Shown: in pieces, positions 1 to 64,000 of the stretch
Position numbering within the stretch: position 1 is the first letter of the stretch
Layout of the letters: the number at the start of each line of letters is the position of its first letter
Translations under genes and position numbers: made by a program
NCBI GenBank assembly: GCA_050084515.1
Contig: CM114271.1
Coordinates: 15,438,001-15,502,000 of the forward strand
Reading direction: 5' to 3'
DNA: 64,000 nucleotides
From: Blasia pusilla
Lineage: Eukaryota
Notes under the pieces: model-generated
Seen by the model: only the letters and a program-made list of their open reading frames with translations
Told to the model about the DNA's origin: nothing
The model's database searches: none

Positions 1-417
1 GCATCCATTCGGGGTGGAGATTATCGACCATCGATTCATAGGTTCCATGTGGGGGACTATGTCTATTTGTAGCAGATTGCACCGAAAACATTGGATGTGA
101 CGGCAGACCGCACTATTTTATGAATGCGCAAGGTGTTAGCTTATGGAGTTCTCATGTTAGAGGGTCGTGATGGAGTTTTTTGGAAGGACCATGTGCATAA
201 TTGTGCGCCATGCCATCTTCCAAATGTGGATGGTATTGTTGACCCAAGCTTAGCCATGATACGTGCTAGCTTGAGGTGCATGTTGTGTGGATCTGCAAGT
301 AACGCAACCCGTATGTTGGTGTGTGATCGGTATTCTAGGGGTTGGCACATGATGTGTTTGACTCCACGTATGGATGTTGTTCCTATTGGAAGGGGGGTTT
401 GTCCTCGATGTACTTAG
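1..417 (+). pseudogene. Integrase C-terminal region plus PHD finger (degenerate)
   Basis: CMLCGSASNATRMLVCDRYSRGWHMMCLTPRMDVVPIGRGVCPRC matches C4HC3 PHD spacing with one Cys changed to Tyr. In-frame stops occur upstream. Confidence 0.85.
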
Positions 418-14405: not shown

Positions 14406-14637
14406 CAAGGTTGCATGTGGACAAAGTCTATGTCCTCCCTATGGAAGGGCTTGTCCATGTGGGCCCCACCATCCCCTTCTTTATCGTTCCCTCCACCCCC
14501 CCCCCTCCTCTTTCATTGCCCCACTTGGCCTTACCCTACTTCCAGCATGAACTATAAGTATGGGCTCCACCTCTTATCATCCATGTCGGTGGACATATCC
14601 ATACTTGTCCATCCATGTCCATTTTTGTGCAACCATA
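14406..14637. mobile_element. hAT MITE family copy (opposite orientation to 63670-63997)
   Basis: Ends CAAGGTTGCATGTGGAC ... TTTTGTGCAACCATA. Flanks AGAGGGAG / ACAAGAAG match only partially. Confidence 0.7.
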
Positions 14638-15081: not shown

Positions 15082-15597
15082 TAAAATAAAGATCCAATCT
15101 CTCTCACAACACCATAGTTCTCACATGTGTGGACTCTCACATGTCTCTCTCAATGTCAAACCAAACCCACTCTCCTAATGAGAGGCTTGGATTACACTCA
15201 CAAGGCAAGGGACCATAGCTCCGCTGCCTCGTGCCAAGAGGTTCAACAAAGAGAGAATGAGCTCTCAAGCTCTCTCTCCTTGAGATATACCTTTCTCCTC
15301 CCCCGAGCTCTCTCCATGGTAACCTATGCTCCCAAATCACCTCCTTGGCTCTTAACTTGATATAGGAGATCAAGGTCCACTTACCATAAATATTAATCGA
15401 CCATATACTCAAAGTGGTACTTACCGAAAATAGCATGTTCCTCAATGTGGCTCCAAATGAGCCGAAACAAAGGGAAAACCTGCTCTCTCAGGTTTCATGG
15501 GGCCTCAACATGTCATCCTTGACCTCTTGAGCATGTCCTCCACTACTGGAGAAAGCGCTCTAGTAGATCTTACCGATCTATCCTAAAAGACGTGACA
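15082..15597 (-). repeat. A2 repeat of copy 2
   Basis: 516-bp direct repeat of 23980-24494, about 85-90% identical by eye. Begins TGTCAC on the minus strand. Confidence 0.92.
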
Positions 15598-15599
15598 AT

Positions 15600-15727
15600 T
15601 GTCGTGCGCATACACATCGCTACACAACATATATTGTTGTCACCAAACACACATACAAACACGCACGATCCCATGCTAACTCATGGCATCCAAACAACGA
15701 GACAAGAAGTACCAAAATATCTCCAAT
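15600..15727 (-). repeat. B1 repeat of copy 2
   Basis: 128 bp, ends ...GCGCACGACA on the minus strand and is separated from A2 by a 2-nt AT spacer. Confidence 0.9.
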
Positions 15728-15906
15728 CGCCCCCTAGCTGGTCGTTAGGTCCCTCTAACTCCAGATAGCCATCTATCCCTACATACCATGACATACATCT
15801 CTCGGATGCTAAGAGCAAGAAGGTTGGGTGCTCATGTGGCCGCATTGTTAGTCGCCTTCTTGTCATCCATGTCACAGACACAAGTCAGAATGCAGAACTA
15901 CCTACA

Positions 15907-18900
15907 CTATGTATATGTAGGACACATCCATTGTCCCTAAGGAACCCTAGTAAGAGGTGGTGTCAAACATGTCATATGCCATCCTCTGGAACATCCATCA
16001 CAGACTAGCATAGTGGCTGCACCACGGGTGGAACCACACAACATACACCGCAAGCCGGCAGAAACTATTGCTAAGCTCGGATCCAATATACCGTCAATGT
16101 TTGGAAGATGACATAGCGCCCAGTTACGCACATGGTCCTTCTAAACCATACCATCGCCTCCCTCCAATAAGAGAACACCAGATGGCAAAATCTCAAGCAC
16201 TTTCAAGATGGTCACCCTGCAGTCACATCCAAGGTCGTGGATGCCGTCTGCTCCAAGTAGACATAGTCTCCATGATGAAACCTGCGGATAGTAGTTTGAT
16301 AACCACCTCCCCGAATAGTCGCATACCTCAATGTATCTCGATGTTGCGCAATCGCCAAGTTCTCAAACGCCATGGGGATCACTCTCCGAAACAACCCAAC
16401 CCTCTGAGAACATGCTCGCATCCATATATCAGGGTCATCAAGGTTCAACACCTCACTAACATCTCGACGAATGGCCGTAGGTAAATTTGGCTCTCGGCCA
16501 TACAAAAGCAAGTACGGTGAGAAAGACGCTAAGGATGTCAGCGTGCTGAATCTGTATCCCATCGCCAACCACGGGAAAAGGAGGTCCCAATCTCCTAGGT
16601 GACCTCTCTACAAGCCATACTTGCATAGTCCTCTCTTCACCGTTTGCACAACCCGCTCCGCTAGTCCATCCATCTTAGGATGATCTCGCGAAGTAGTGTA
16701 GTGGTCGATCAGTGCCTGATCACACAAGGCCTAAAACGCCCCGCGGAACTTTGTACCCTGGTTTTTCAACACCTCAGATGGCACACCGTAATGACCCAAC
16801 ACCCGATCTAGGAAGGCATACGCTATTCCCTCACTCGCTTTGTCATAAAATGTAACCAACTCTATCCACTCTAAGAAGTGCTCGACCATCACCAACACAA
16901 AGCAACTATGGCGCACCGTCAAAGGCAAAGGTCATGCAAAATCCAAACTCCATCTATAATCTAAATCCATGATCAAAAGTGGATGCAAGTGTGGAGTCAG
17001 AGCATTGAATGATGCTCGGACTTGATTACACACCATGCATCTGGCAACAAACTGCTGAACGTCGATTTGCATGCCTCGCCACCAATACTGAATCTAGAGC
17101 AAGCTGTATATCCGCTTCACTCCAAAATGACTCAACTCCTCGTGGGCATGATGCACCAAATGTGCTCTCTGCAAAGGACGAGGCACTACACGCACTCTAC
17201 CATCCTCCTACACTCCCCATTCTCCATCAGACCTCGCCATCAAAGTCTCAGCAATCTGGCTCTCCATAGCCAACAAGCCCAAATAGGCTAACGCATGCCA
17301 TCCTGGCACCAACTCCTCATCACTCTCACCATGCCAACGAGCTCCAGTCAACGAGCTCCAGTCGCATCTCGCTGACTCGAGAATGGGTTACGAATCATCC
17401 TGGTTGAGCATCCCAAGTCTATGCACCACCTGGAAGTCATACTCCTGCAACAAAAGAGCCCATCTCGCAAGCTTCCCTGTAAGCTTGTCGGACTCCATCA
17501 ACCACTTAAGTGGCTTATGATTAGTAATGATGGTAAAGGGATTGCCGAATAGATAACATCTGAAATGTACAACAGCCCACATTGCAGCCAAGCACTCACC
17601 CTCATACGAGCTATACTTTTCCTCTGCAACGTTGTTCGAGCGACTAGCGTAAGCCACCATGAACTCTCTACCATCATCGTCAGGATGGGTGAGCACGGCT
17701 CGAAGCCCCAACATGCTCCAATTGGTATGCAACTGGAAAGGACGCCCCGTGATCGGTCTCCTCAATATGGGCGCGGAAATCAATATATCCCTGAGCATCT
17801 GAAATGCTCTCTTCTACTCATCCCCCCAGTGCCACTCCTGATCCACCTTGGTCGGCAAGGTCAACGGCTTTGCAATCGAGCTGAAACCCTTGACGTACCG
17901 TCGATAGAAGTTTGCCAATCCCATGAATGCACGAATTTGACTCACATTTGTAAGACGTGGAATGTGTGAAATAGGCTCTACCTTCGTCTGCTGCACACCA
18001 AGGCCACCTGGATATATCTTACGACCCAAGTACTCAATCTAGTCGTAGAAGAACTTGCACTTGCCTGGATGTAGCTTCAGCCCATGTAACTGAAATCGTT
18101 GAAACACCTCCTCCAGATATCGTTCATGCTCCTCAACCGTGGCGCTAAAGACTATGATGCCATCAATGTTACACCTAGGACAATCCAGACCTGCCAAGAT
18201 CCTATCCATGACCCTCTGAAACTCAGCCGGAGCGTTCTTTAACCCAAATGGTAAGAATCGCCACTGGTACAAGCAATCCTTCCCGTGAGGATCGATGCCC
18301 CAAAATACCATCTTCTGCCTATCCTCCAATCTGATAGGAAGTTCATGGTATTTGACTCGAAGATCTAACGAAGTGAAGACCTTTGCATGCCCAATAGCAT
18401 CAAAGATCTCCTCAGGAGTAGGCATGGCATACCTATCGGACTTTGTCTACCGATTGATGGGTCGGTAATCTCCACACGTCCGCCTATTCTTCCAATTGCC
18501 ATGCACATCCCTCTTGGTGGGCATGACAATGGCAAATGCATACTCTCCATGCGACATCTCCTCTAGTCCCGCTCCAACCAAGTGCTGGCTCCTACTCTGA
18601 ATCAGAGCCCTCTCCATGTTACTATACCTGTAGGGTTATCGGAAGATTGGCATGTTGCTCGAAAACTCAATGCTAATCCCTGGACCCTTCAGCGTACCCA
18701 AATCATGCATACTAAATGCAAAACAACTCCTATAACTCCTAAGGAACTGGTGTATCCGGCGTCACTCTCCTCTTGTCAACTTAGGGCCCATACGTGGCCC
18801 CCAAGTCTCCATCATGACTACGGTAGGACTCTCCGGCATGGGTGTTGATGGTTGCTATGGTGCAACCCCGTCTCAAACAACAAAACTCAACTGCTCCCCT

Positions 18901-21900
18901 AGAGCCAACTGCAAATTTGGATCTCCATATGCAGTACCCTGAACTACGCTTGATGCTGTGGCTACCATCTCCTGGCGTACCTGCAAAACATCCTAGTATA
19001 TCACCCGACAAGAGGTTGTGGTGAGGATTCGATCGAGACATCCTACCGATGAGTCTGTGGTGCGAGCCAAGGCGATAGTGACTCATGCAGAGTCCTACGA
19101 CATCTTGGTTGGTGAAGCAGTGTTATATCCGATAGAGTTTTTTGTGGATTACTGGGAGGAGTCAGCGTCCTCCAGACCAGGAAGGTAGTCAGGTGATGGG
19201 CGCCTTAGCTCATTACCCGTTCAATTCACAGGTGTAGTGATCGAGCGACGGCCAGGAGAGATGGTGACCTTAGCAACATTTAGCAGTGCCATCACTTGGC
19301 CTAGCGATTTGATTGAGGGACATGTTCATGCAGAGGATACTCTAGTTTCTGACATTTCTATGGAGAGGAGTGTCATGGTAGTCGTTTTGGGGCTCGACTG
19401 AGGAGCTTCGATGCTTAGCCACTGAGCATGTGCAAACCGCATGGAGCGAGACGTTTGCACCAGAGTGTGATGGGTTAGTGGAACCATAGATAGCCAGGAG
19501 TGGTGCTATGACCCCTTTGGACATCACCCCCGATTATGTGGTGCATCCTAGAGAAGGGTATTCGGGTGTTGGATCTCTTTGGAGGGATCAACACTAGGTT
19601 AGCTGATGTTTTGTAGGCTGGAGTGCGCCTGTAGCAGTACCTGTATGTGGAGATTGATGATGTTGCGAGGCACGCTTTACTTCACCATGTGGCACAATTA
19701 CACCTCTATTTTCCAGACTTTTTATCTGCGTCCGCCATTTTTGGTGGATTCTATATTGAATTCGGGCCGTACATCACAGGTAGTGAGGCTAGATGATTAA
19801 TCGCCGTTGACTGTGGTCAACGGGATTGGCATGCCACGGGCAACATTTCCCACATTGGTGAGTTTTTCCGCTTCCTATGAATTCAAGGAGGCCGAACCTG
19901 GCTTGGTTTGGGATGACCAGGTACTAAGGTTGGTGGAGCCCAACGCCGATGAGCGAGAGTGAGCGATGGGATTCCCCATAGGAGTGGCGACATAACTGTC
20001 ACTATCAGAGGCATCACAACATCGTGTCTTGGGTTAGGCGATGGACCTGAACTCGACACACCAAGGATGATCATGATAGAAATCTTTGGACTTCTGTGTG
20101 GTACTTGCTCCATCCAAGGATGTATGTATCCGGAATGGACAACGCTCCACATTGGCTCTCGTTAAGACCAATCCTTTGAATGACGCTTTCCCCAACATCA
20201 GGGGTTACGCTCCTGAATCCAATAAGACACATTGCGGACTAAAAGCTCTACCTCATGGACTCACCACCTGGAAGACCTCTCCCCAATTATCTAGCAACAC
20301 AACACCAGGAGAAGCCATGGCACGCTTTATCGCAGGTCTGGCCGGCATCTCCGCCATCCTAGCAGCCGTAGACTGCCATGAATCTGGCTCGAGCATACGC
20401 TCCAATGGTAGGTCCATCGCCTCCTTTGCAATCACATGTGAACGTGATGCAAGAACTCCAACTCCACGCTCACATAGCATAGCAGCCAGCCGGAAAACCT
20501 CGACGGGCATACCTCCCAACGTCATAACATTGGAAGCAGTACGGAGCGGAGCACGGTACACCATCGTGGCCGCCCCCAATATCATACTCGATCCATGCTC
20601 CTCCTGAGCATCAGCAATAGGAGTCATCCCACTTGCTTCTCCCATCGCCCTTTGTGCTTGCATACTAATAACATCACCAACTCTCCGGAAACTCTGATCA
20701 TGACCCATTGATGGGGTCCTCATCGCCGTAGACAACGTGAAAGACAGAGGAAGCGTGGTCTGTTTCCTGGCTTCCCCTCATTGTGGATCCAACTCTGCGG
20801 CTGCTCCACGTGTTACAACTGCGGCGACCTCCATTTGGGCAACCCCGCACATCCAACCAGGATCCTCCATATCTCTGGTTGCTCCATATGATGTTGATGC
20901 CACGAATCCGGCATCGAGTAACCTCAATGCCATAGCGGCAATCTGCTCCTGTAGCTATTGTATCTGAGCAGCCATCCTAGCCTCACGCCCGGCATCTCCC
21001 TTGACGCGTCTAGGTGGTGGGACTCTACCTCCTCCACGGGAAATTCCACCATCCTGTCGGGGAACTCCAGCTCCTCGTCCCCCAACAGGACCACCTGGTG
21101 CACAATCTCTAGCCCACCCGGACCGACTACTCGCTCTGGTGCCATCTCTGGACCTCGTTCTGGACATAACTCAGGGTGTAAATTGAAATACCTGGCGCGT
21201 GTGTGACCATATCTTTGACAATAGTCACACTGATAACCTCCTAATGCAGCACCATCTCCTCCTCCACGCTGAGGCACACGTCCATGACCCTGATGAGTGC
21301 AATCATGTTGATGATGGGCTCCACCACATGACCAACAAGTAATCATAGGCGGTTGCTGCTGAGCCGCATATGAAGTCTATGTGGCACGACCTCCCGGTAT
21401 CCTCCCTCACCTCGTGGTGCCATAGTCAACCTATCTCGGAGTCCACGTTGTTGCACTCGTGGTGCAGACAATCGTGACTGCTCTCGCCCAGAACCCATGG
21501 TGGCTACACTCTCCTCCGCCATGTTGCACTCACTATTCTTGGCGGTCCTAAAAACATCTCTCAACGTAGGGGAGGTGTTCAAAAGAAGCACCCCCTCCCG
21601 CACCCGTGTCCGCAGGGTCTGGTCCAACATCGCGTACCATGATTGGATAGCCTGAGCCTCTAATCTTTGAGTGACGTTGATCAACCGGCGCAAGCGAGTG
21701 TCAACCTCACACAAACTCTCACCCAAGCGCCTCTGGAAGTCATGGATGCTCCGCAACTTCTTTGTCCGTACCCCCTAGTAGCTCGCCCTCAACTCATCGG
21801 AGAACTCAACCAAGGGGTTGAATATGGGACGAACCCGACTGGATAGTGCAACTACTCCAGTGCGAGTGACCCCTCCTAAAACATCACTAGTGAAAGAAGA

Positions 21901-22200
21901 AGTGGCCTCTCTTGACTCCTCCTCCTCATCTGGGAACGGCTCCATCCATGACAAATAGTGTGGGTCATAGTAGAGTCGCCATGCCTCAATCTCCTGGGCA
22001 TATATGTGGGAGAACTCATGATAATCGTCTATGGACGCCCCCTCTAAATGCTGGAACATATAGTTCCATGTTGTAAACGGGTTGAACTCTCTAGAGTTCC
22101 TAGCCTGTTGTGAGTCACACCAACTCCTAAACTCCACAATGAAGTCGTGAAGCTCTATAGTGCCTATAGCACCTGAAAACCTACACGGTCCTCTACCCTA
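15907..22200 (-). pseudogene. gag-pol polyprotein pseudogene of copy 2 (many stops and frameshifts, internal inversion 18997-20093)
   Basis: ORF-track fragments join into one collinear polyprotein ending ...RVP*GQWMCPTYT* (stop at 15909-15907). The start is not resolved. Confidence 0.9.
19557..20056 (+). pseudogene. Cytosine-5 DNA methyltransferase domain inside copy 2 (inverted segment, central motifs deleted)
   Basis: GIRVLDLFGGINTRLADVL*AGVRL*QYLYVEIDDVAR gives motifs I-II (DLFGG at 19572-19586). After a frame jump near 19740 it reads FPTLVSF...EPNADERE*AMGFP (motif IX, 19951-19977) and RVLG*AMDLN (motif X, about 20023-20052). Confidence 0.85.
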
Positions 22201-23979
22201 GTCGTCCATCTCGTATGCCCAACTGGTAGGACCACTCAATATGTATGGTGGATCACTAACACACTCCTCTATATGCTCCCCCTTGTCGAAAGAAAACATA
22301 GAAGGAGATCGAGGTGGTCTCTCATGTGGAGATCCTCAAAACCTCCCACCATTCCGAGTAAACCCTCCAGAGCTACTCTCAGGTCCACTACCTCGCCTCT
22401 CAAAATCCCTAAAGGACGTTGTGATGGCCCTTGTGCCCCTCTCACACGATCACTCTTAATCTTGCAAGTAATCCCTCAATCACTAAAACTAAACATGCGC
22501 ACTCAATCTACACTCTCTCACTAAGACGTGTAATGTGCGGCAACAAGCATCGTGGTGTGGCAAATCAACTGATCTATCGTCTCATCGACAAACCATCCTC
22601 AACTCTGGACATCCCACAAGGGTCTATGTCCCCTAAACCCATATATCATGGATGCTCTCAGCATCAACACGAAACCCAATATCCCAAATAACTTCCCAAT
22701 ACCCAAAAATCCCTCACACATGCAGGATAAGAGACCTGAATGGATAACCTGACAATAATCTCGATGTCGCTCTATGGCAACTGCAAATCTCGACCCCAAC
22801 TCGATCGTGAAGAAAACTCCTCCAATCAGCAAGTCGTACTTCGCTCGTACTGACGCTGCTCAAACCTCCTCGATGTGTGGTGCAGGTCGAGCGATCCGGT
22901 GGCATGGCACTCGGGATTGGGATGCGGCACTTGGCGGCATACCCTCCTCAATAAAAAATTCACACGCTCTTTTCCTTAGTGAAGGAGTGGCTCCACGATC
23001 GAGACGGTGCAGTGCGGCCATAAGCGGCACGGCCCGGCAATGGGCAATGCGTTGCGGCTACGGGCGTCATGGCACGGTACTCAATCGCTGTCGAGCAGCT
23101 ACCAATCACAACATAGTAGCATGTTATGAAAACTCATGCTACTATAGCCCGAGGTCACCTGACATCACATGTTGATGACAAAACTGCGATGATGGTGGCG
23201 GCCAAAACAAAGTATGTGGTGGCGGTGCAAGTCAAAGAATCAACGGTCGTCGTAGAAGACCCTCCACTCTATAATGGCAGAAATGGAAACCAAGGGTGGA
23301 CAACGGTCGAACGCGGCTCTGAGAAGCGCCATGCGGGGGTGGCAACCAACGATGGACGATGGACGGTGGACGGTGAACCGTTGACGGTGGCTATGACGGT
23401 GACTGCCACCGCCGACGCGGCGGCAGGTTTAGGGTTTGAACAATTTAACCCTAAAAATCGCCTATCAATGGAAAATTTTCAAGATTAACCATAACTTTTT
23501 GTTCGCAACTCCAAACTCCGCATTGTCTATTGCACAGCCTGCACAACTTCATGATCTACGACGACGTTAAAAATATTTTGAATCAAACATTCCAGTAAAA
23601 ATTGAGAGGGATTGTCGTAAAGCCAAATGTCTCTTTCTCCTACACAAAATTCGACAACACTTCCGCTCTGATTTCTCCCAACGAAAATATAAAACCTATA
23701 AGAACACAAATCAGCAAGCTACATGGTGCTCCCAAGAGCACTGGCATGGAGCAATCGACCCCCATACTCAATTCCTATCAAAAATTGGGCAGCGCTTCCG
23801 CGTGCCACTCTCCCGTAAAAAAAATCAGCAAAGCAAAACAACAGACCCCCACGTCTCTTGCTCCGATGAGCACTCCCATGAGCCATGAAGTGGGGAACAC
23901 GGTCCCCCAACTTGCACCAAACATCAAGAAACCAGCGAGCTTCCCCATGAAGCTCTCTCACTCACTCATTCTCTCTTTG

Positions 23980-24494
23980 TAAAATAAAGATCCAATCTCT
24001 CTCACAACACCATAGTTCTCACATGTGTGCACGCTCACATGTGTCTCTCAATGTCAAACCAAATCCACTCTCCTAATGAGAGGCTTGGGTTACACTCACA
24101 AGGCAAGGGACCATAGCTCCACCGCCTCGTGCCAAGAGGTTCAACAAGAGAGAATGAGCCCTCAAACTCTCTCTCCTTGAGGTATACGCCTCCCCTCCCC
24201 CAAGCTCTCTTCATGGTAACCTATGCTCCCAAGTCACCTCCTTGGCTCTTGATCTGATGTAGGAGGTCAAAGTCCACTTACTAAAAATATAAAGGCGACC
24301 ATATACTCAAAATAGTACTTACCTAAAATAGTAAGTTCCTCAATATGGCTCTAAATGAGCCGAAACGAAGGGGAAACTTGCTCTCTCGGATTCCCAGGGC
24401 CTGAACGGGTCATCCTCGATATCCTGATCATGTTCTCCACTACTCGAGAAGGCGCTCTACTAGATCTCACCAATCTATTCTAAAAGATGTGACA
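23980..24494 (-). repeat. A1 repeat (5' terminus of copy 2)
   Basis: 515-bp direct repeat of 15082-15597. Starts TGTCACAT on the minus strand and is not followed by a B copy. Confidence 0.92.
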
Positions 24495-25199: not shown

Positions 25200-28100
25200 G
25201 TATTTTCCATGTATATATATATATATATCGCTACATAATCCATATCACTAATCATATCTATACAACACACAACACCGATCTTCCTAACAGACGGATTGAT
25301 CCAAACATACAAAAGAATGCACTCATGCAAGCACACCAAGACCACGCAACAAAAAAAAAAGAAAAAAAAACCCGTCCAACTCGCAATATCAGCATATACT
25401 CTTGCTCGGTGTGTTGTGAATTTAGTGGAGGAGACCAAGTAGTGATTAGAGCTTCCACGCTTAGAGAGAGAGTTTGTACTTCAGGTGGTCCATCCAATGC
25501 CTTGTGATGTTCTTTCAGATTTGAACTCTTCATCATACCATCTATTAAACCTGATTGGGATCCCCTCGGGGAATCCTAGAAGACATTACTTACTAGTACA
25601 GCATCTTTGGGCAATCAATCCAGGGTATTGAATACGTTGAAGAATTTTGGTGTGACCAGCTTGGCTATATCAGCATATGCTCTTGCTCTATGTGTTTTGA
25701 ATTTTGTGCATCAAACCAAGTAGTGACCAAGGCACAAGAGTATAGTTGAGTTCCATCCTGGTTTACTTATGGTTCAAGGGGATACAAGCCGTCCTAAGCA
25801 AGGGCTTTCCACAAAATGTTTCTTCAATTTTTCTTGTTGTGGATTTACCCTCAAGAGAGTGAGATCATACATTTTCATGCCTTACTCCATGTTTTTCTGT
25901 TGTGATCATTTTCCCACTACTTTGGTAATGGTATCCAAAAAATCCTTTCTCATCCACCGTTCGCCTTGAGGAATTTCAGACTCTAACATCTAAGCTCCTA
26001 CCAAAACCTAGCAAGAGTGGTGCTCCAAAGGCTCAATATGAGAGAGACGGCTTGAGAAAACCATCTTTCCCTCCCTTATATCCTTGGAAAGAGGCAAAAT
26101 TCTCATCCCCTAGAAATAGCCCTCTCAATAGTAACTTGCACATAGATGTTACCAGATGACTCTTGACTTGGTCCACACGTAGCCTCACCTAAAATAGTAA
26201 AAGAGGGGAATTTTTCTAAACAACATTCTCGTCATAACAGAGTTGTTATTATATGCTCAAATCATTTGCTAACCCTCTACATTTTTTATATGGCATAACT
26301 CTACATGTCGAGTAACTAAGATATGAAAAATAGCGTGCACATACATGTGTCTACATAACCCACATTGCTAGTCACATCTACGCAACCCTGATATTCCCTA
26401 CATATAGGTATGATACCTCAGAGAGCATGTAACACATGTGCCCAACATGATCTGCTATCTTATACACATCCAACAACATGAGAGCTATCATATATGCAAC
26501 ATCTTCAAACACATGCTCCCCCTCTAATCCATCTTATCTATTTCAACCTAGAGATACCAATATGTCAGTATGTTGGCTTGTAACACTACAACTAATTCTG
26601 ATGTTGATCCCTCGGAAGAAATCTAACACTCTCATGCCCTCCTCTAGACATTGCCACACAATAAGTGTGGTATCCAAAGATATTATGTCTCCATTCTATG
26701 AGCATGATCCTCACCTAACTCTATATGCTCTAGGAAAAAGGCGCGACTTAATGCGTGCCTCATGAACTCGTATGTATTCCTCTAAAAGTCAATGCTTGTC
26801 CACACAATGGTGAAGATGTCTCCGCATCATGTGAAGAGATACCCATTATGGCATGTCTCTCAATGGGATTATCTGCTATTGGGATGTCCTCTTCATGTAC
26901 GCTCCCCTCTAATAACGCTCTTGTCCTGCTAACTATATCCCTGAATGTTGCCAATATAGTCAGAACATCACCTTGTGGATCACTGCTACGCCCTACGAAT
27001 CGCATAAGTAAATGGCTTACTTGTCCATCACCTAATCGCCATCATGATCTTGGTTGATAAAAAATCATCTCTTCACAAAAAATAAGGATGAAACCAAAGG
27101 GGTTCAACATCGTACTCCTTGCCAACACATCATACAACTTTGCTTATGTTGTAATCGCAAGATTGCGCACCATCTGAAGCATGCTTTGGCTAGAATCTAA
27201 CAACTAGCTCTTGTTGAGTCATGTTTTTCAGGGATGATACGACCCTGAAAAACATCGTATCATCCCTGAAAAACATGTTACGATGTTTTTCAGGGATGAT
27301 ACGATGAAAAACATCGTATCATCCCCAATGTTGCCTTTCCATAACCCCAATGCCAAACATGCAGCCTTCCCTAACTTCAAGGTTGTGCTCTTGAAGTTAG
27401 GGAAGTAGGATGTGCATCGAATGATATACCATACATATGGGACTAACCAAGCATAACATCCCACTCCAATTGTCCAAAAATACCATACTTGGTATCACCA
27501 TGGTTTGCTCTTTCGTTGGTCTAGCTGGCGTATCTGCCAACTTGGATGTTGCAACCTTCCATGATTCAATGCAGCGAGTCCCAAGAACCTACCATGAGGA
27601 TAGTTCCACCACCTCCTAAGAAACTACCTCTGAATGAAAGTTAGAAACCTCTTTACACTCACACACTGTGGCGGCCAACTCGAACACCTCTGATGGTCCA
27701 ACTCCCATTTTATCAAGTTCATGGCAGAAAATAATGGAGCATGGCTCACCCAGGTGGCCATCTTCAATAATGTAATCGATACTAATTCCAACCGAGTATG
27801 AATAGGAGTTCCCTCTCCAACTCCTCATGACATCGACATACCCATACCACTTGTGGGCACAAAAAGTTGCCTAAGCACCACTGATGGTGTATGAAGTGCC
27901 TTTGATAACGTGGAAGACTATAGAATCCTAGCATATCGCCCATCGATCAATCTCCTCTTGTGGGTCTTTCTCAATTCCACCTCTCTATGGATCGATCACT
28001 TTTGAAGCACCCCGAGTCAGATCAACATCAACCTCTACCTTAGATGCATTGCACATTAATCTCAAGCCAGTTTACTCCTCCCACATATTCTGATACAATA

Positions 28101-29330
28101 TATAGAGGGCGGGGCTAAAGTGGTTACTCTCGACTGCGTGTCCATCATTGGCTATGTCATACTCACGGCAACAATCCTATGCTTCAATGATCAATGTGAG
28201 CGAGGAGCATTGCATCTTGTGCACATCCTCCATTTCCTCTAATAGGTGGTGGAATTCTATCACCGCGGTCAGAAACTCCTCGACTTCCACCAACTTGTTG
28301 CCCTCATCCTACCTTTGGATATATCTTCGACAAAGCTCATAACATCTATTCCTTGTGTGACCATATCTATGGCAATGATCACATTGTGACTATGGTGGAG
28401 CATCCGAGGTGGCTCCTAAAAAATATAAGACAAGCTCGACCCTCTACCATACTTTAGGCAATCCCTTTGCATGTGGATTCCACCAAAAATCCAACACATC
28501 AAACTTGCTCCTTGCCAACCAACATAGGTCTGCTCGGGTTGTTGCCTCATAGGCTCACGATATCCACTCTCCTTACTAGGCACATCGACTCGCTCTCGTG
28601 CCATTGATGCACTTGTGGGTACTTGTGGAGCTACTAGCACTTGTGGATATGTCAACTCTCGAGGGAGTTGCATGGTCATAATATGCTGCTCCCTCATCTT
28701 GAGCTCAAGATGCTCAAAAAATTCGAAGACCATCTTCAATGTGGGCTTCATTGTGTGAAGCAACATCACATCTCAAACTCTTCTCCATAGCTCTCAATCC
28801 AAAACCACATAAGAATATAGAATTATGTGTGCCCTAATCACTCAATGAGTGGTAATGATCAGTCATCATATGCGCATGAACGCCTCTCATAGGCTCTCAT
28901 CATATCTCCACTGAAATTCTTGTAAACTCTTAAGCTTATTATTTTGCATGCCCTAGTAGTTCATCCCTGACTCTCGAAACAACTCCATTGTAGGATTTAA
29001 ATTAGATGGCCCTCTATACCACCTCATCGCCATCACTCCCATCATCTCCATCTAGTCCATGGATTGATGATGTGGATCTAAGCTCCCTCACTACCCCATT
29101 ACGTGCCTTACAACCACTATTGGACACATATCTTGGAGCCCCATACACCCTCAATCATTGATCTCTATGATGTAGAAAGTTCAAAACTCACGAGAATCAT
29201 CCATTAGAGGTCCCTCTAAACATTGGAGCAAACTTTTCCTGACATGTGGGGGTTAAAGTATGTAGGGGCTTAAATCTCTTGGTATTTACACCATATGTCT
29301 AAATCCTAGATGAATTCATCTAGAATATAT
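25200..29330 (-). mobile_element. Heavily decayed, internally deleted relative (copy 3): gag, protease, DNMT N-terminus; RT/RH/INT not recognised
   Basis: Gag QCLEGPLMDDSREF (about 29230), knuckles CWIFGGIHMQRDC and QCDHCHRYGHTR (about 28500-28350), VFLDNWSG (about 27480), LYDVL (about 27135), then EEGMRVLDFFRGIN (about 26644-26603) and YL*VEID. Boundaries are approximate. Confidence 0.75.
27220..27325. repeat. Nested inverted/direct micro-repeat cluster
   Basis: ATGTTTTTCAGGGATGATACGA and its reverse complement (T)CGTATCATCCCTGAAAAACAT alternate in about 5 full or partial copies. Confidence 0.9.
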
Positions 29331-33009: not shown

Positions 33010-34735
33010 GCTACAGCGGTTCCGATGGTCCACATCACGGGGAGAAGTTCGGAGATTTCGACGAGGGTTAGTTTCCCAGCTGAGTCTCGAGACGAAGTGG
33101 TGTGATAGCTGTTGTCGCAATTGAGGCGGAATATAGTGGAGCGATCGATGGACAGGCTTTACGAAGGACTGGAAGGCGATTGGCGAAGTCAATTCGCTAG
33201 GAAGGGAACTGACGCTGTCCTAGAGTCGGATATGCGAGGACTCAAGATCAAAGCGCTCGCGCTTGCTCTCCGTCCTTGCAACTCTAATCTTAGAGTACAA
33301 AGCGTAGGGCTCTGGGCACGCGCTGGTTAGGTAGAAAGGATAGGACACAATATCTGCCGCACTTATTTTCGTCCCTACCTTGTATTTTTGGTCTGCACTG
33401 ACATCATGCCCCGTGGTTATCCAGCTTAAAAACGAGGGCTTTTAGGATTCTTCCATACGAGAAGGTGACGGGGAGGCATTTGAGCTGGGTTTGTTCGTTC
33501 GCAAAGTGGATAGTATCGTGTTTGTGTCTCAGACTTCAAACCATCTCTAACATCGGGAGCTGATCATGCCTGTGGGAACCTCATGGTATTAGCCCTCAGC
33601 AGTCATTCTGGTAGTGATGATCCCCGGATTGAGGGTGGCCTATGCCATCACCTAATCTACACTCCATCCAACCTTCGATCTGCCATAGATTGTGTCCTGT
33701 CAGCGTTCTTGAATTCTGTGTTGTTCCAGTTCAACCATTACCTCATCTCCTCGTCCCTCTCCATTCTCGGATTACTCTTACCCTTTGAATAGCCCAGCCA
33801 GTGAATTCGTATGGTGATGGGTTTCCTCCTGAAGTGGTAGTCGAGTAGTACGTAACTGTTGTACTGTTACTATCTTCTGTTAGGAAATGTTGAGAGGCAA
33901 GTACTAGGATTCTATCTCGTAAACGTGCAGCTGTACCTGTTGTTTCATCACGACTACTGCTTCTACTGGGTTGCAAGCTGACACGGTATAAAATGGTTGA
34001 AGGTTTTGGCTGGAGCATAAACTGGCGCCGAGTCCCGAATTTGGAGAATGTAGCATTTTTCGTTTCTCCAGTTTTTGTACGGGAGGTGAAATGGTGGAAG
34101 AAAGTCTGCACATCAACAATGGTTACTTTGCAAGACTTGGGGAGGCCATCATTGCCTTGAACAGATGGAAGTGTCAGAATGACTCTGAAGATCGCTGAAA
34201 GACAATGTAAGCCTTGCATATTTCAATTACTTGACGCACTTGATATTCAGCGAAAACATAACATTTGTTGTTCCGGGAACGAGATTTCTTGGTCGGATGT
34301 AGGCATCCTGTACTGGGGAGTTTTGTCTTTTTTTCTGGTGTGTCTTGGTCTGTAGTTTGCAAGGTCCAACGTTTCCTACCCCGTTGTGCCCAAGAGTATG
34401 AATGAATTTAGGGCTGTGAGTGGCAATCATCTGAGCCCAAGATGGGCATTTCATCACGAACCTGTCTTTTTGGATGTCTTTTGTGATGGGCCGGGTTTGC
34501 ATGGTGGTTGATATCTGTAACTTTTATGAGACAATTTGGATTAGATCTGAAAGTAAAATAATCTTCAGGGAACTATCAAGGGTAATAGAAGCTACTATTC
34601 AAGTCACGAGTCTTGGAAAGGAGAGGTTTGGGTTGTGGCTAAGCACTGCAATTGCTTTGTTCTTATACAGGTGACCCTTTCATCTGCGCGTATTTCAGAA
34701 GTTAAGGCCTTGCGCTCTTCAGAAGATTCGCCCCA

Positions 34736-37700: not shown

Positions 37701-37804
37701 TTGGGATGGATGGTGTTGTTCTGAAACCAATCTCCTTAGGGGACATGAGTTCAGAGCTTTGCAAGCTCCTGAGAAAAGCCCCTCACAATGGAACATCTAG
37801 GTAG
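34736..37804 (+). CDS. ETR: Ethylene receptor (ETR family hybrid histidine kinase), about 771 aa; exons 34736-35728, 35989-36762, 37256-37804
   Basis: Ethylene-binding domain [16 protein letters not shown]...[12 protein letters not shown] domain, H-box MNHEMRTP, N-box GNAVKF, G1 DTGLG, G2 GGTGLGL and receiver LLDLCMP. Two GT-AG introns; the exons sum to 2316 nt in frame. Confidence 0.95.
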
Positions 37805-57201: not shown

Positions 57202-60151
57202 TTAGGCCACAGGGGTTTGTAGATAGAGAAACTGCAGAAAAACAACAGTATAGGTCAATTATCTTGCAATTTACCAACAGATGTATGATGAAAGTGATAA
57301 ATCCTGTAGCTCTGACCCAAAATCTCACGGAGAGAGCCCACGATCAGGCAATAAAGCTTACCTCAAGCGACTTCCCTTGAAGCTCAAAGTCAAGCACACT
57401 CAAGGCTACTTCGCAGCTTTGAGCCACTAATGGTTCAGGGTCTTTGCGAAAGGTCTTCAACAGTGCCACACTCTCACCATCTGTGAGCAGAAGTTCATTG
57501 CTATCAAACTCTGACAAGCAAGTCTCTTCTTTAATCAGCAAGCATTGATTCAAAAACATTTGACAAGCATTTTAGCCTAATACCCTACCTACATTTACAT
57601 TCCAGCGATAAGCTTCAACCAAATCTCATGAGGTCTGCTCGGATTTACCTGCGATTGAGCCCAGGGCTTCAGCCGCTTCATGTCGAACCATAGGGTGTTC
57701 AAAGCAATCCTTCAATGTTGTCATTAATGCAGTAGTTGCTGACTTATCTTGCAATTGTCCGAGGACATACGCAACCTGAAAAGAACACATCACTTTAATT
57801 CAATCTCCTTTCCTTTTAAAACCGACATGCATTGTCCTTTTCACATCTCAAAACACACTACATTTGGCAGTTCAAAATAGCTTTGGCTGATACACTCCAG
57901 GCATAAACTAGGACAGCAGGGATAGACTTGGGTCAAAGCATGATCATAAGTTGTGGCAAAGGTAAGAGCTCACCTTTTCAGAATTCCTCCTTACATTTAC
58001 AGAGCTTTAGAACTCTTTTCGAACTATCCACAATCAAAATTCAGGTCTGCCCATGCTGTCAGGGTATACTTCCAAGATACGCCTGACCACCTCTGAAGAC
58101 TCTTTGGAGAACATAGAATAAGTTGATTGTTTTAGTATTAGTGAAGATGGTACCTCATGTCGGAGAAGGGCGCTCTTGCAACCCAGAGCCGCAACTATTG
58201 AATCCACAGCATCGGCACCACCCCTGTTTCGGAGTGCAAACATTGCTCCATAGCGTTCATACATTCCCTTCTCCTCATCCAGAAGTATCTTCCTTTCCCC
58301 ATAAATGCCACAAGATACAGATGAAAAAAAGAAAATCAGTGGCTCGCACGTTACAAACATCTAGTTTGAAGAATAAGGTGCTCACACACAAGGTACTTGA
58401 TTGACACATACTGCATGACTTGTACAAAACAAAATACTGCTCATAGTGGAAGACTTGCGTTATCAGTAAAGAAAATTGCTTACTCGCCTGCAAAGAAAGA
58501 AAAGAAATACAAAAGCTGTAGACAACTATGAATGTAGATTGTTGGCCACCTCAAGTCCAAGATGCTCGAATTGTTAGGGGCTGGAGCAGCAGGATCAACC
58601 GACAAGTAAGGTGATGCATCGGTGACTTCATCTTGATTAGGTGTAGATGCTACTCCCTGCTCTATCCTCCGTAAAGCTAGTTCACAAGTTTCTCTCACTT
58701 CAGCAGCAGGATCAGAAACCAAACTCTTTCGCAGAAGAGCAACAGCTTCTGGTGCACCAATGGCTCCAAGTGCTTCAGCTGCCTAGATATCAATGCACAA
58801 AGCAGGAACTAAGGTTAGAAGCTCGTACCCAACAAGGCAGGCAGATTTAGCAACAGTCACTGGTTAGCTATTCCGAAAGTTGGCCAATATAAACCAATGG
58901 TGAGAAACAAATCTAAAAGATACCACACAACGCAAAGCGGCCATTGTTTAGGTCACCAGAGATCTCATGGGCTGGTCAAGGGCCATTTCTAATGCTCCCT
59001 TGACTTAAGTCCCTACAGTCTACTTATCTTCACCAAGGTATGATCACCTGTACAAATTTCTCAGAAACTTCCTGGAACTCTTTTGGACATGTAAAGACAT
59101 GAGAGTATGCATTCAGAAATTGCCAAAAAGCATGAGCTAGATTGCACAATGATATGACACAATGGCACAGATCACCCTAGCTCCAAGAGGTCTGATAGTG
59201 GTCTGACAGCCCTGTGTAATGACTGGGAAAGGGCTCACACCTCATGGCGTACTATGGAAGCCACAGAAGCAACATCCTCCAAAACCGCCCGCAATGCCGG
59301 TATGGCCTCTGGGTCCTGCATCTGACCCAGAGCAAAAGCTGCCTCATGTGCCAACAAGTTCGATGCATCTCTCATCGCTACACCCATTTATTCATGCAGG
59401 AAACGCAGACACAACCTAGCTTAGATTGCTCACAAAAAGCCTTATCTTAACTCACACACGCAAAGCTCAGATATAAAACACACGGGAGAGCTCAGGCGCT
59501 AGGCAAATTATGACACTGGAAACCCAAATAAATCCTGGCGGGACATATCATATACCTTAGCAGAGAGAGAAGGGGCCTTAAATTTCTACGCGTTGGGGCC
59601 GAATTAGGCTACATTCCAAGACCATGCAGCACGTAAACAGAAGTACAGCAAATGTTCCGACTCTCATTTTGCTCACTCCTTGACAAGACCACTAGTTTCA
59701 AAACAATCACAAGCTTTTACCCCTGCGTGCAATTCACTAACCTGCCTTATCACCTAATCCATGAACGTCTTTTACAAGGTGTAGAATCTGCGTCTTGGAC
59801 AACAATGAAGTCTAATGGCAGCAGATATCGTGGAACGCATCAGAATTTAGCGAAATTGCAAAGCTAGGATGTCCAAAAGCGAATGGCTCCAGGATGACGG
59901 ACAGAAATGCTTCGCATTACAATCGTAAAGGGTCTCAACCAGAAGCGAGTGCTTCACCCCTTACCAGTGATTAGAGCCTCACGGGGTACGGGACCCTTCA
60001 TATTACGTAGAGAAAACAGAGCCCTCCAGCGCTCTGCGATTCCCAGGCGTTCGTCCAACATCTGCTTGGCTACGAACTCCACCGTCACGCCATCAACGAC
60101 AGCATCGGCAGACAATTCCGTCCCACGACTACCGACATCATTGTCAGCCAT
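57202..60151 (-). CDS. DOHH: Deoxyhypusine hydroxylase, about 323 aa; exons 60151-59965, 59377-59241, 58782-58550, 58292-58154, 57775-57649, 57480-57362, 57231-57202
   Basis: HEAT-repeat protein with four His-Glu iron-binding motifs (LAHEAA, VRHEAA, LRHEVA, VRHEAA), [15 protein letters not shown] and C-terminus [14 protein letters not shown]. The exons sum to 972 nt in frame. Confidence 0.93.
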
Positions 60152-60340
60152 AGCCTTTTCTCCTCTAGTCCGATTCTTGATCCGGAAATTGCTGCAAATC
60201 TGGGCTGCGATATTGCGCATCAAAGTGGATCACCCAACCTCAAAACCAGAAAGATGTTTGCCAGTCGTTGAATTTATACCATGATTTCTGGAGAACTCGG
60301 GACCTCATTCCCTATAAGGTCCCTCGAACAAACCAATCTG

Positions 60341-60350
60341 TTTAGGGTTT
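60341..60350 (-). promoter_or_regulatory. Telo-box (AAACCCTA) upstream of DOHH
   Basis: TTTAGGGTTT lies 190 nt upstream of the DOHH ATG. Telo-boxes are typical of plant translation-related promoters. Confidence 0.45.
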
Positions 60351-60759
60351 ATGCAATTTCCAAAGGTTATGATCTATCGATGGGAACCATTCTCCTGAAC
60401 AATTTTGGCCTCCTCTTTGCCTCCAATGGTGTAGTGTTTTGATAAGTTTAGGTTTAACCTGGGACCGGGTTATATTTAATTTTCTTTGTTATTTACTCTT
60501 AATTTCTTCTCCATGTGAAAGGTTTCCTCAAATCCTGCTCTCTTTGAATTATATAGATATTATAAATGATAATTCATATAATGTTTTAAAAAAAATCTAT
60601 GGATGGTGGAAAATGGTATTTTAAATCTATGGATGGTGGGAAATGGTATGTGTGTTTCATGCCTTTTTTCAACATTATGTTCATCTACTTCTTATTATAT
60701 TTTTTCATGAGTATTGAAAAAAGTTTTTATATTCGTAATTTTTTTCATAGATTAGGTAT

Positions 60760-61450
60760 CCAAGTTCTTGGATGAAGTTCTTTGGAAAGATATAGAGTGA
60801 CTTCATTTGTTATCTCATATAGGGGATCAACAAGTGACTTACAGAATTTTCTTCGGATATATTTGGTGATGTCCATCCTACTTCGCATTTGTCCTTCCAC
60901 TTCAAAGTTCTTTCATGGGCCGACTTTTTTTTATATTTCTCTCATGACAACTTTCGGTCAACTTCTTGGTCTCAATACATTAGAGGAAGATGATGATGTC
61001 TTGGCTTCACGACAAACTATCTTGCCTATTTTTTTTGGGGTCAGGGGTTTTCCTCATCTTTTGTATCTACACCATCATTTTTTTCAGGGAGTTGGGCCTT
61101 GGTTGCTCCGATTGTAACTTCAAGATTTCTACAAGGAGTTGTACCTATCTTGATGGGTGATATGGCCTATGTAGAGGGATCTATTATTTCAACAACAACT
61201 GAGATCTGTCTAGGATCTTCTTGATCTCGTTACACAAGAAATTCTACCTCCTTTCAATCAATTGACTACATAAGGGGTTGATCGACTTTAAGAGCTATCT
61301 TCAAGAACTTGCACCGACTAACATTTTCCAATAGTCTCTCGGAGGCATCCCTTAATAATCATAAAGTTCATCTATATTCATGTGTGGATAAAAGAGCTCA
61401 CTATAAATCCTTTTATTCTTCCATTTCATCTTCCATAGAGTATATTCTCA
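60760..61450 (+). mobile_element. Decayed CRE/SLACS-like non-LTR retrotransposon fragment (post-RT region)
   Basis: RQTILPIFFG.. then, after a frameshift, GFSSS..PSFFSGSWALVAP and HLYSCVDKRA. This resembles the QAxLP..GGLG..APAAFxxSW..RLxS pattern of CRE-clade elements; recognised by eye only. Confidence 0.45.
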
Positions 61451-61699
61451 ATGTTTTTGCACCTTAAATTTCATCATCCTTTTCATCTAGGTGTGATCAA
61501 TTGTGTATATCGAGAGTCCATTGATGCAAAGGGTATCCACATTCTTCAATGTGCATAACACTCTTAATGTGTGAAGAACCCGGGATGGTGGTGGTGGTGG
61601 TGGATGATGTGACATAATCACCACCTTGGTAGCATTCATGAATAGTGTTAGCCGGCTTGAAGAGTTTTTGGAGGAGAACACCCATACAAATGACATGCC

Positions 61700-62440
61700 G
61701 ATAACTTATAGTCCCATGGAGAGACATGCCATGATGGATGTTTCTTCCCATGGTACAGACTACTACGGAGACATCTACATCATTGTGGGGGTATGAGCGT
61801 TGACTTGCAAAGGAATTCATATGAGTTCATGAGGTAGGCTTGAAGCCATGTCTTTATTTTGGAGTGGAACAAGAGGTTTGACAATCGTGCTCTTAGAGTG
61901 GAGATGTTGACATCCTAGGATATCACATACGTTGTGTGGTAGTGTCTTGAGGAGGGTGCAAGAGTACTAGATCTCTTTGGAGGGATCAACACGGAGTTAC
62001 TGGTGGTGTTACATGCCGACATACATGTGCAACAATATCTTTATGTTGAGAGAGATGAGATTGTACGCCACGTCTCGTTACACCTTATGGCGAGGTTGAT
62101 CCATTCATATCATGAGTTGTTGTCAACATATGTATTATGAGGGTACCAACATACACTACTAGCTGATATTTCATTAATATAGGGATCTCACGACGTGGAT
62201 ACAGTTTGGATTTTTGGATGGCCATGTCAAGGTCATTCATCAACTGGCCAAGCTGTTGGATTGTAGAATCTGAGGTCAAGGATGTTTTTGGGAGATACTA
62301 TGAGTACTACAACACTTGCAAGAGAGCCATACATACTCTTTGGCCTATATTTTGAAGAATGTGTCATTGTTGGAAGACACTTGTACACAGATGATGACGA
62401 GTGTGTATTGATAAGGGCATTGTTAGGACTTGCTGTGTTT
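61700..62440 (+). pseudogene. Fragment of the gypsy family (copy 4): linker plus cytosine-5 DNA methyltransferase motifs I-VI
   Basis: EEGARVLDLFGGINT (DLFGG at 61970-61984), QYLYVERD, ADI, IFGWPCQGHSSTG (GWPCQG at 62216-62233), RSRMF and AYILKNV (YILKNV at 62346-62363). GATCTCTTTGGAGGGATCAACAC is identical to 19572-19594. Confidence 0.88.
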
Positions 62441-62516
62441 TAGATGTTCCCTCAAAAGTGATTTTCATCAATCTAATCCTCTTGAACTCTAAGAGCCCTA
62501 ACATAGCAAACCTATG

Positions 62517-63661
62517 CTCAAGGGTCTCACTTCCACAAATATGCCCCATCACGTGTGATAAAGTAAGGGGTTTTTTAATTGCGTCCCTTGGAAGACTTAT
62601 TAAGTTTTGTGGAAGAACAAGAGGGTTCAATTTATTCCATGACGTGCTTAAACGAACAATGGGATCTTTATATTAATTGCCCTTCCATGGAAGACGTTCA
62701 CATAAGATAGGGTAAATACTCACAATATATATATATATAAAATACATATTTGTCACATAAAATTTCTTTATATTTGTTTCAAATTTAATTTTATATAATA
62801 ATTTTTCTCCCTAGGTACAAAATTCTTTGATTCTTTTCAGGGAAATTTAGAGGGAAAATGATAGTTTTTTTTAAAATGGTTTTCCTCCCTTCACCATTTT
62901 CCCACAAACAAACTTGAACCGGGTTTCTCCAAAACCAAAACCCGGTTCAAGTTTGTTTGAATCTACAACAGACGTTGGCCCTTCCACAAGATCAATAAAG
63001 TCAAAGAAAAGGAAGGAAAAGAGACACAACTTACAGTGGAGACAAGAGTTGCAAAAAAGGAGTATTGGTTGGGGCGTATTGTGTATATGACTCAAAAGAA
63101 CGGTACACATTGGTCAAGACTTCGTAAGACCTTAGACTTGATGGGCGTGCATGTACCTCCTCTTGGACAAAAGGGAAGCATTTTTTGTGTCATGTGTAAA
63201 TGATACAAGTCTTCTGACCATGGTAACAACAAAGCCTTATTCACTTATGATGCAATAGATGTGCAATGGATTGATATTGAAATGGTGATTTCTAATGTGA
63301 ACTTGACAATGAAATCAGGGATATAAGATATAATATATATACTTTATTCAATTGACTTACATGCTTTGACTATATACACTCAAAATGTGAGTTGATCTTG
63401 GTGCATTTTTTTTATGGTTGAGACATGTTGGATTTAGTATTTTTGTTGGATTGTGGTTAGAATGTACTTGACACCGTTAAATTGTGGGAGAAAGTAAGCT
63501 AGGGGGATGACAAATTGGCTGATTGAGCTTCTTGCACTCGAGGGTCTCACTTCCACAAATATACCCCATTAAGTGCAACAAAGTAAAGGGTTTTTTAATT
63601 ACGTCCCTCGGAAGACTTATTAAGTTTTGTGAAAGAACAATAGGGTTCAATTTATTCCATG
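62517..63661 (+). repeat. About 125-bp direct repeat pair (62517-62641 and 63537-63661)
   Basis: AGGGTCTCACTTCCACAAATA...GGAAGACTTATTAAGTTTTGTG...GGGTTCAATTTATTCCATG occurs twice, 1020 bp apart. Confidence 0.85.
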
Positions 63662-63669
63662 GCCCTCTT

Positions 63670-63997
63670 CATGGTTGCACAAAACCGGACTAGTCCTTCC
63701 TTAGGACGGACATGGACGGACAAGTCTAGACATGTCCATGGACATGAGTTCCAAGAGATGGGACCCACACTTTTAGTCCATGATGGAAGGCAAGGCAAGG
63801 ATGAGAGGATCAATGAGGAAGGAGGGAGTGGAGATGGAGGGAGGAAGAAATGGGGGTGTATAGAACACGAAGGCAAGTAAGGGGAATGAGAAAGAAGGAA
63901 TAGGTGGGGCCCATACGTACAAGTCCTTCCATAGGATGGACATATCCACATGCATGGACATATCCACGGACACGGACTTTGTCCACATGCAACCTTG
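63670..63997. mobile_element. hAT MITE family copy
   Basis: TIRs CATGGTTGCA ... TGCAACCTTG; interior similar to 11701-11960 and to the reverse complement of 14406-14637. The TSD cannot be checked because the window ends. Confidence 0.75.
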
Positions 63998-64000
63998 GCA

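Follow-up and report, generated by a model that had tools for sequence, protein, structure and literature searches.

Near the end of a 64,000-nucleotide (nt) stretch of the genome of the liverwort Blasia pusilla (NCBI GenBank assembly GCA_050084515.1, contig CM114271.1, positions 15,438,001 to 15,502,000 of the forward strand; this whole stretch is called the window below) lies a short and broken piece of coding sequence with the motifs of a cytosine-5 (C5) DNA methyltransferase, and the question raised by this locus is whether the piece descends from a gene of the host or from a mobile element. A sequence-only reading of the window had placed an orphan fragment at 61950..62400, had linked it to a retroelement carrying a methyltransferase of the DNMT type and had argued for a catalytically competent ancestor. 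The analysis reported here makes it very probable that 61620-62410 is a dead relic of about 0.8 kb from the middle of an old long terminal repeat (LTR) retrotransposon of the Ty3/gypsy type, in whose Gag-Pol polyprotein a DNMT3-like domain stood between the protease (PR) and the reverse transcriptase (RT). A host-gene origin is very unlikely, because the relatives are retroelement-borne, the sister copy is located in an LTR element and the linker upstream of the domain matches that of another copy at 26.5 kb. The location first proposed for the fragment was right, although the homologous stretch is a little wider (~61620-62410); the 3' limit of homology was found near 62408 and the 5' break adjoins a (GGT)n run at ~61586-61605.

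Reading frames and motifs of the fragment

The frame from 61943 reads ARVLDLFGGINT, QYLYVERDE, IFGWPCQGHSS and RSRMF, with LDLFGGINT as motif I, and is interrupted by in-frame stops at 62138-62140, 62180-62182 and 62264-62266. A frame change located within 62283-62290 leads into a second frame, in which FWEIL is followed by a stop (62301-62303) and then by AYILKNV, and which is terminated by a further stop at 62409-62411. The peptides quoted in the sequence-only reading are all present exactly as written. The Pro-Cys nucleophile of motif IV is kept (codons 62222-62227, inside GWPCQG at 62216-62233), and the glutamate of motif VI is lost, with KNV standing for ENV and the Lys codon AAG at 62355-62357 replacing that of Glu. 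In total, 155 aligned profile positions contain four stops in frame and a single change of frame, and no open frame spans the fragment on either strand. Its GC content is 42% and its CpG observed/expected ratio 0.44, the corresponding values being 49% and 0.67 for the LTR element of the window and 43% and 0.46 for the copy at 26.5-29.3 kb; the low CpG of the fragment is a pattern typical of long-silenced plant repeats.

The methyltransferase homology was evaluated with a family profile of 321 positions, built from 133 database proteins and from no sequence of the window. It aligned with 61949-62290 at positions 4-121 (110.7 bits, E = 2.4e-35) and with 62283-62390 at positions 119-155 (7.0 bits, E = 9e-4), as compared with a best score of at most 2.6 bits in 20 block-shuffled windows. 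Comparison of the fragment with the alignment A1 by hhalign gave a probability of 99.6% and an E value of 6e-25, and residues 976-1034 of the Marchantia protein P0260 matched the piece in the second frame with 52% identity (E = 3.5e-11). When the fragment, read through with X at its stops, was used as the HMMER/phmmer query against 1.84 billion representative proteins, 122 relatives were recovered at E ≤ 1e-3 and 12 at E ≤ 1e-10, the best of them with an E value of 1.4e-22 and 50% identity. The bryophyte relatives spell the corresponding motifs AGWPCQGH and YILENV, which resemble those of the fragment, and are 46-48% identical to it over ~126-132 residues.

Individual motif residues agree with this assignment. 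The LFGGINT of motif I falls at profile positions 12-18, where 101 of 119 relatives have the Phe and 111 of 119 have the second Gly, and the Glu of YLYVE, in motif II, falls at position 37, where 125 of 126 relatives have Asp or Glu. The succession of motifs I, II, III, IV, V and VI that had been read from the letters was reproduced both by the alignment to the family profile and by that of the family to DNMT3A. These motifs are collinear with the profile and unpermuted, and the stops sit within aligned columns and not in gaps, so that there is no sign of an intron. Downstream of 62390, no plus-strand match was found to profile positions 156-321, which hold the RxR of motif VIII, the target-recognition region and motifs IX and X.

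Origin of the fragment

The stretch upstream of the domain was examined for its resemblance to the linker between PR and DNMT. By blastn, 61626-61945 aligned with 26954-26648 on the reverse strand (68% identity over 322 nt, 114 bits, E = 8.7e-28; maximum in 100 shuffles, 31 bits), a resemblance to the copy at 26.5 kb that had been claimed before and that proved to be significant and larger than claimed. The fragment is 69% identical to that copy over 442 nt, and the copy runs on upstream from the linker into PR and gag, to 29270. A linker-only query from P0005 also matched 61620-61754 (E = 4e-7), and the alignments of three bryophyte polyproteins reach 49-62 residues upstream of the methyltransferase domain. 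The linker of the fragment is badly decayed.

The trees group the fragment with polyproteins of bryophytes. The main tree, computed for 145 sequences over profile positions 4-155 with neither a host DNMT3 nor a Klebsormidium sequence included, put the fragment inside a 41-tip clade with bryophyte polyproteins (support 0.999) and sister to the second copy of the window, copy 2 (0.89), and the corresponding nodes of a 91-sequence tree were supported at 0.999 and 0.84, respectively. Among 33 relatives scanned, 29 passed the Pfam PF00145 cut-off and 22 carried retroelement domains (gag, PR, RT, RNase H, integrase) alongside. The locus tag Mp5g09290, given in a preprint as that of the host gene MpDNMT3b, was absent from the Marchantia-named matches (16 with P0001, plus those of a further search). 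The relatives' domains, the clade, the linker match and the absence of this tag together uphold the earlier assignment to a retroelement rather than to a host gene.

If a DNMT3 or DRM gene of the host had left a pseudogene here, whether processed or duplicated, this too would carry a DNMT3-like domain, and it would suit the observation that no retroelement gene touches the fragment. Such an origin is nonetheless scarcely credible, since the closest relatives are all retroelement polyproteins or pieces of them, the upstream linker is also found in a copy that runs on into PR and gag, the PDB search reached neither a DNMT3 nor a DRM chain at E 10 as against retroelement domains at 1e-22, the motif order is unpermuted, unlike that of DRM, and the MpDNMT3b locus is missing from the Marchantia matches.

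Several observations weigh against the interpretation as a retrotransposon relic with a methyltransferase domain. Pfam, including PF00145, returned nothing for the fragment even at E ≤ 10, and neither did phmmer of the fragment against the PDB sequences at E ≤ 10; because these direct searches were empty, the C5 methyltransferase assignment of the fragment is transitive, via its relatives. The Pfam search of the reading frames of the window's other copies likewise gave no methyltransferase match at E ≤ 10. Only one of 62 linker-only database queries reached the upstream part of the fragment, and the trees contained no host liverwort DNMT3, which also leaves room for a host pseudogene. No LTR, target-site duplication, PR or RT was seen beside the fragment within the window, and for this reason we infer, rather than see, that it was inserted within a complete element. 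The window stops 1.6 kb past the fragment, and the missing parts could lie beyond. In addition, when the gypsy-borne DNMT of the charophyte Klebsormidium was assayed in a heterologous system, methylation was not detected, an outcome that the authors call inconclusive (PMC5890265).

The nearness of the window end bears on a further explanation, by which the fragment is just one part, the one that can be seen, of a larger element, nested or rearranged, whose remainder lies beyond that end or has been split off by later insertions. The flanks are rich in repeats, including a 125-nt repeat (62517-62641 and 63537-63661) and repeats common to 11.7 and 14.5 kb, and the inversion and deletion in the neighbouring LTR element demonstrate internal rearrangement in the family, all of which would be in keeping with such a block. 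This explanation is nevertheless rather unlikely, as even at E ≤ 1 the 3 kb upstream showed no similarity to PR or gag, and the 1.6 kb downstream none to RT or to the C-terminal half of the DNMT, and a HEAT-repeat host gene fills 57.6-59.4 kb on the other strand. No relative of the family matched the flanks 58500-61600 and 62450-64000 even at E ≤ 1, and the open reading frames of at least 45 residues in those stretches held no Pfam domain. The label of orphan is fair within the window, given that neither flank has a family match. As a solitary retrotransposon relic, the fragment would have been isolated after insertion by deletions or rearrangements, and it would now be functionless.

A functionless relic may also be put to new use, as a source of small or antisense RNAs against active members of the family or as a regulatory element of a neighbouring gene. 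Decayed repeat copies are common sources of small RNAs in plants, and the fragment has kept 45-52% protein-level identity to active-looking relatives; nothing direct speaks for a new use. Given that neither strand has an open frame, that Rfam found no family over 59000-64000 and that nucleotide identity to the other copies of the window is only 59-69%, co-option is judged to be highly improbable. At that identity the copies are too diverged, and small-RNA targeting of them would be inefficient.

Related copies in the window and in other bryophytes

The fragment and the related copies of the window are collected in Table 1.

Table 1. Positions of the fragment and of the related copies within the window
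Feature	Positions	Strand	Evidence
Decayed remnant of the PR-DNMT linker	61620..61948	+	blastn match to 26954-26648
N-terminal half of a DNMT3-like C5 methyltransferase domain	61949..62290	+	Motifs I-IV and start of V; 3 in-frame stops
Continuation in the next frame, motif V and motif VI with Lys	62283..62411	+	Profile positions 119-155; 1 in-frame stop
Old LTR retrotransposon: gag-CCHC, PR (LLDSGA), inverted DNMT module, RT, RNase H, integrase, PHD finger	15082..24494	-	Pfam, tblastn, LTRs
Copy 2: linker and methyltransferase lacking profile positions 69-200, in inverted orientation relative to the surrounding minus-strand LTR element	18997..20058	+	Profile, tblastn, tree
Copy 3, with gag, PR and linker, truncated after motifs I-II of the methyltransferase	26477..29270	-	tblastn of P0260 residues 41-802, P0010
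End of a further related element that the window start truncates, with integrase C-terminus and PHD finger	1..414	+	Pfam PHD; tblastn of P0017, P0080, P0098, others

The LTRs of the element that houses copy 2 (15082-15597 and 23980-24494) are plain direct repeats, 88.4% identical over 517 nt. Its gag and PR run from 22194 to 20064 and its RT, RNase H, integrase and PHD from 18803 to 15916, all on the minus strand, with the DNMT module on the plus strand; the PHD finger occupies 16233-15916 (-), and many database relatives likewise end in PHD. The accessory module alone has been inverted in place, and the breakpoints are confined to ~10 nt on one side (20055/20064) and ~190 nt on the other (18803/18997). 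No long inverted repeats flank the inverted module; those found were of only 10-14 nt, partly mismatched and no more than expected. The inverted module might conceivably be an assembly error.

In copy 2, 19551-19745 matched profile positions 4-68 (63.2 bits) and 19714-20058 matched positions 201-315 (86.9 bits). The sequence-only reading had described this copy as lacking the catalytic core, and the missing positions bear this out, since the deletion removes motifs IV and VI; among the copies of the window, the fragment alone has retained the catalytic Pro-Cys and the region of motif VI. At the DNA level the two are 59% identical over 198 shared nt, the differences being 43 of 66 at third, 18 at first and 20 at second codon positions (proportions of nonsynonymous and synonymous differences, pN 0.27 and pS 0.81). 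Because identity is this low and the third positions are saturated, the fragment and copy 2 are assigned to different old subfamilies and not to one element. Their codons indicate a split long ago, with divergence mostly under constraint. A dN/dS comparison had been proposed; between the fragment and one copy it has 63 usable codons, whose synonymous sites are saturated and which yield no usable ratio, although they do point to an old divergence under constraint.

The fragment and copy 2 jointly cover 267 of the 321 profile positions, those uncovered including 156-200 with the AHRxRxYW block, which we take to be motif VIII. The earlier suggestion that most of the domain can be assembled is thus only partly right and is overstated, as the motif VIII region is missing and the pieces come from different lineages. 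A competent ancestor of the fragment's domain is plausible from the conserved residues, and here the support comes from the intact relatives (32 of 33 retain the Cys and 32 of 32 the Glu) and not, as had been argued, from stitching. Stitching of the two copies is unnecessary, because intact relatives are public.

A word-indexed search with P0001 gave 38 proteins, and the 20 that were named all came from bryophytes, namely Marchantia polymorpha (16), Calypogeia fissa (2) and Sphagnum (2). The models from Marchantia, Calypogeia and Sphagnum map to the window as gag, PR, linker, DNMT, RT and RNase H. At 90% identity, the Mp_4g09160 cluster of Marchantia has 18 members, five of which are of 1278-1281 residues and several of which are on the V chromosome. 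The members of the Marchantia cluster (P0260, P0291, P0292, P0298, P0299 and others), of which the five long ones have intact motifs, are annotated as hypothetical or CCHC-type proteins; by its sequences, the cluster has the look of an element family that was active recently and whose copies are taken for host genes. The fragment shares with this cluster and with the Calypogeia fissa and Sphagnum relatives the clade supported at 0.999 and the family order gag-PR-linker-DNMT(-RT-RNase H). Unlike the fragment, the members of the cluster have long open frames, intact catalytic motifs and many near-identical copies. Compared with the LTR element of the window, the cluster and its relatives reach a best RT identity of 60-70%, which corresponds to another species or subfamily.

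The position of the module differs among relatives. P0127 is a single open reading frame of 2138 residues with the order CCHC zinc knuckle, PR, DNMT, RT, RNase H and integrase. Across P0127, P0080, P0098, P0039, P0058 and P0113, the module was found either between PR and RT or, in elements with PHD at the end, between RNase H and integrase, or else in copia-type proteins, and these varied positions among retroelements suggest repeated capture or shuffling. In one database relative, the methyltransferase stands beside a Dam-type adenine methyltransferase domain.

Catalytic residues are well conserved, Cys being present in 96 of 103 and the Glu of ENV in 65 of 67 members of the first relative set, in which, of 105 residues before the Cys, 56 are Pro and 39 are Glu; for the bryophyte relatives the figures are 33 of 33 for this Pro, 32 of 33 for Cys and 32 of 32 for Glu. 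When a profile of 23 relatives was compared with known structures, DNMT3A ranked first (E = 2e-25), followed by DNMT3B and DNMT3C, with DRM at ~5e-12 and M.HhaI at 1e-9. The intact relative P0256, modelled with AlphaFold (mean pLDDT 81.8), matched, among the matches listed, only DNMT3A, 3B and 3C chains, with E values of ~4e-18, TM scores by target of 0.79-0.84 for catalytic-domain chains and ~20-22% identity. The fold and motifs predicted from this model and the profile are the same as in the host enzymes DNMT3A/3B/3C and in plant DRM2. The family differs from DNMT3A/3B/3C and DRM2 in having no PWWP or ADD partner domains and in being embedded in Gag-Pol, and from DRM in its unpermuted motif order. 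Motif X of the family reads G-Q, and that of classical C5 methyltransferases is G-N.

From these comparisons a wider proposal can be put forward tentatively, namely that the window holds four relics, the fragment among them, of a gypsy lineage spread across bryophytes (liverworts and mosses), with a catalytically intact DNMT3-type domain between PR and RT and a PHD finger after the integrase, which would be recently active in Marchantia polymorpha (18 models at 90% identity or above, some of them sex-chromosomal) and would have split into old subfamilies. In intact members, the methyltransferase would be made within the Gag-Pol polyprotein and presumably released by the element's protease, and it would then act de novo on the new DNA of the element or on the neighbourhood of its integration. 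The PHD finger after the integrase may read histone tails and in this way pick the integration site. What the methylation would do for the element is conjecture, to which we attach roughly even odds. What a transposon gains from its own cytosine methyltransferase could be tested in Marchantia, as this haploid model plant is readily transformed and its methylomes have been published.

The fragment matters little alone, and its value is that of a pointer to an LTR retrotransposon family with an apparently intact DNMT3-like enzyme in the public gene sets of liverworts and mosses, where the proteins of the family are labelled 'hypothetical protein'. If the enzyme is active, this would be transposon-borne de novo methylation in a genetically tractable land plant. 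For annotation the family is a warning, given that gene models of this kind inflate the counts of host DNA methyltransferases.

Published systems and the surroundings of the fragment

Retrotransposon-borne DNMT3 has already been published for streptophytes, and the fragment is a dead example of that kind. In KnitGypsy-Dnmt3 of the charophyte Klebsormidium nitens, an intronless and non-rearranged DNMT3-type domain is part of a gypsy-type Pol polyprotein, and the key catalytic residues are conserved in the intact copies (de Mendoza et al. 2018, PMC5890265). The fragment resembles it as an unpermuted, intronless DNMT3-type domain, very probably from a gypsy-type element of a streptophyte, and differs in having a land-plant (liverwort) host and in being dead itself. 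The terminal repeats differ as well, the full element of the window having plain direct LTRs and KnitGypsy-Dnmt3 a DIRS-like layout according to the legend of Fig. 4c (PMC5890265). No protein named for Klebsormidium appeared in three word-indexed searches or in the protein-library search.

In the dinoflagellate-type system SymbioDIRS-Dnmt3 of Symbiodinium, a DNMT3-type domain has likewise been captured by a retrotransposon, and for two copies de novo methylation of CG was demonstrated after transfer to a heterologous host (PMC5890265). Unlike the elements described here, SymbioDIRS-Dnmt3 belongs to the DIRS class, has a tyrosine recombinase and comes from an unrelated host, and its acquisition was independent according to the authors (PMC5890265), who call the role of retrotransposon-borne DNMTs unclear. 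DNMT3 members have also been reported in LTR Copia and DIRS elements of streptophytes and dinoflagellates (PMC12344493), and retroelement DNMT3 has later been cited as a streptophyte feature (PMC12344493; bioRxiv 10.64898/2026.05.21.726589). The main text of PMC5890265 makes no mention of Marchantia, liverworts, Sphagnum, bryophyte elements or a PHD finger. No description of methyltransferase-bearing LTR elements of liverworts or mosses was found in the literature searched, and they may yet be included in the DNMT survey tables that go with PMC5890265 and PMC12344493.

Near the fragment, two weak profile matches, one of -0.1 bits (59101-59304, +) and one of -3.7 bits (59778-59668, -), were rejected as chance, both being in the shuffled range and having no tblastn support. 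The tandem repeats of the flanks are unremarkable, and a scan for bacterial promoters and terminators, which is not meaningful for plant DNA, gave no excess. The two units of the direct repeat just downstream of the fragment are 90% identical and lie 1020 nt apart, and an unclassified repeat at 63670-63997 resembles 11701-11946 and 14406-14620. Exons of the HEAT-repeat gene (PBS-lyase HEAT-like) were recognised at 57629-59387 (-), the fragment being situated ~2.2 kb past the last recognisable one and on the opposite strand. Starch-synthase exons were found at 46.5-50.9 kb (+). The genes of the window are plant-like, and by the ethylene receptor described next the host is most probably a complex thalloid liverwort. 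An ethylene-receptor gene of the ETR1 type at 34706-37801 (+) consists of three long exons that encode the ETR1 N-terminal domain, GAF, HisKA, HATPase and receiver domains, and its first exon is 91% identical to a protein of Riccia sorocarpa, 84% to one of Calypogeia fissa and 73% to one of the moss Ceratodon.

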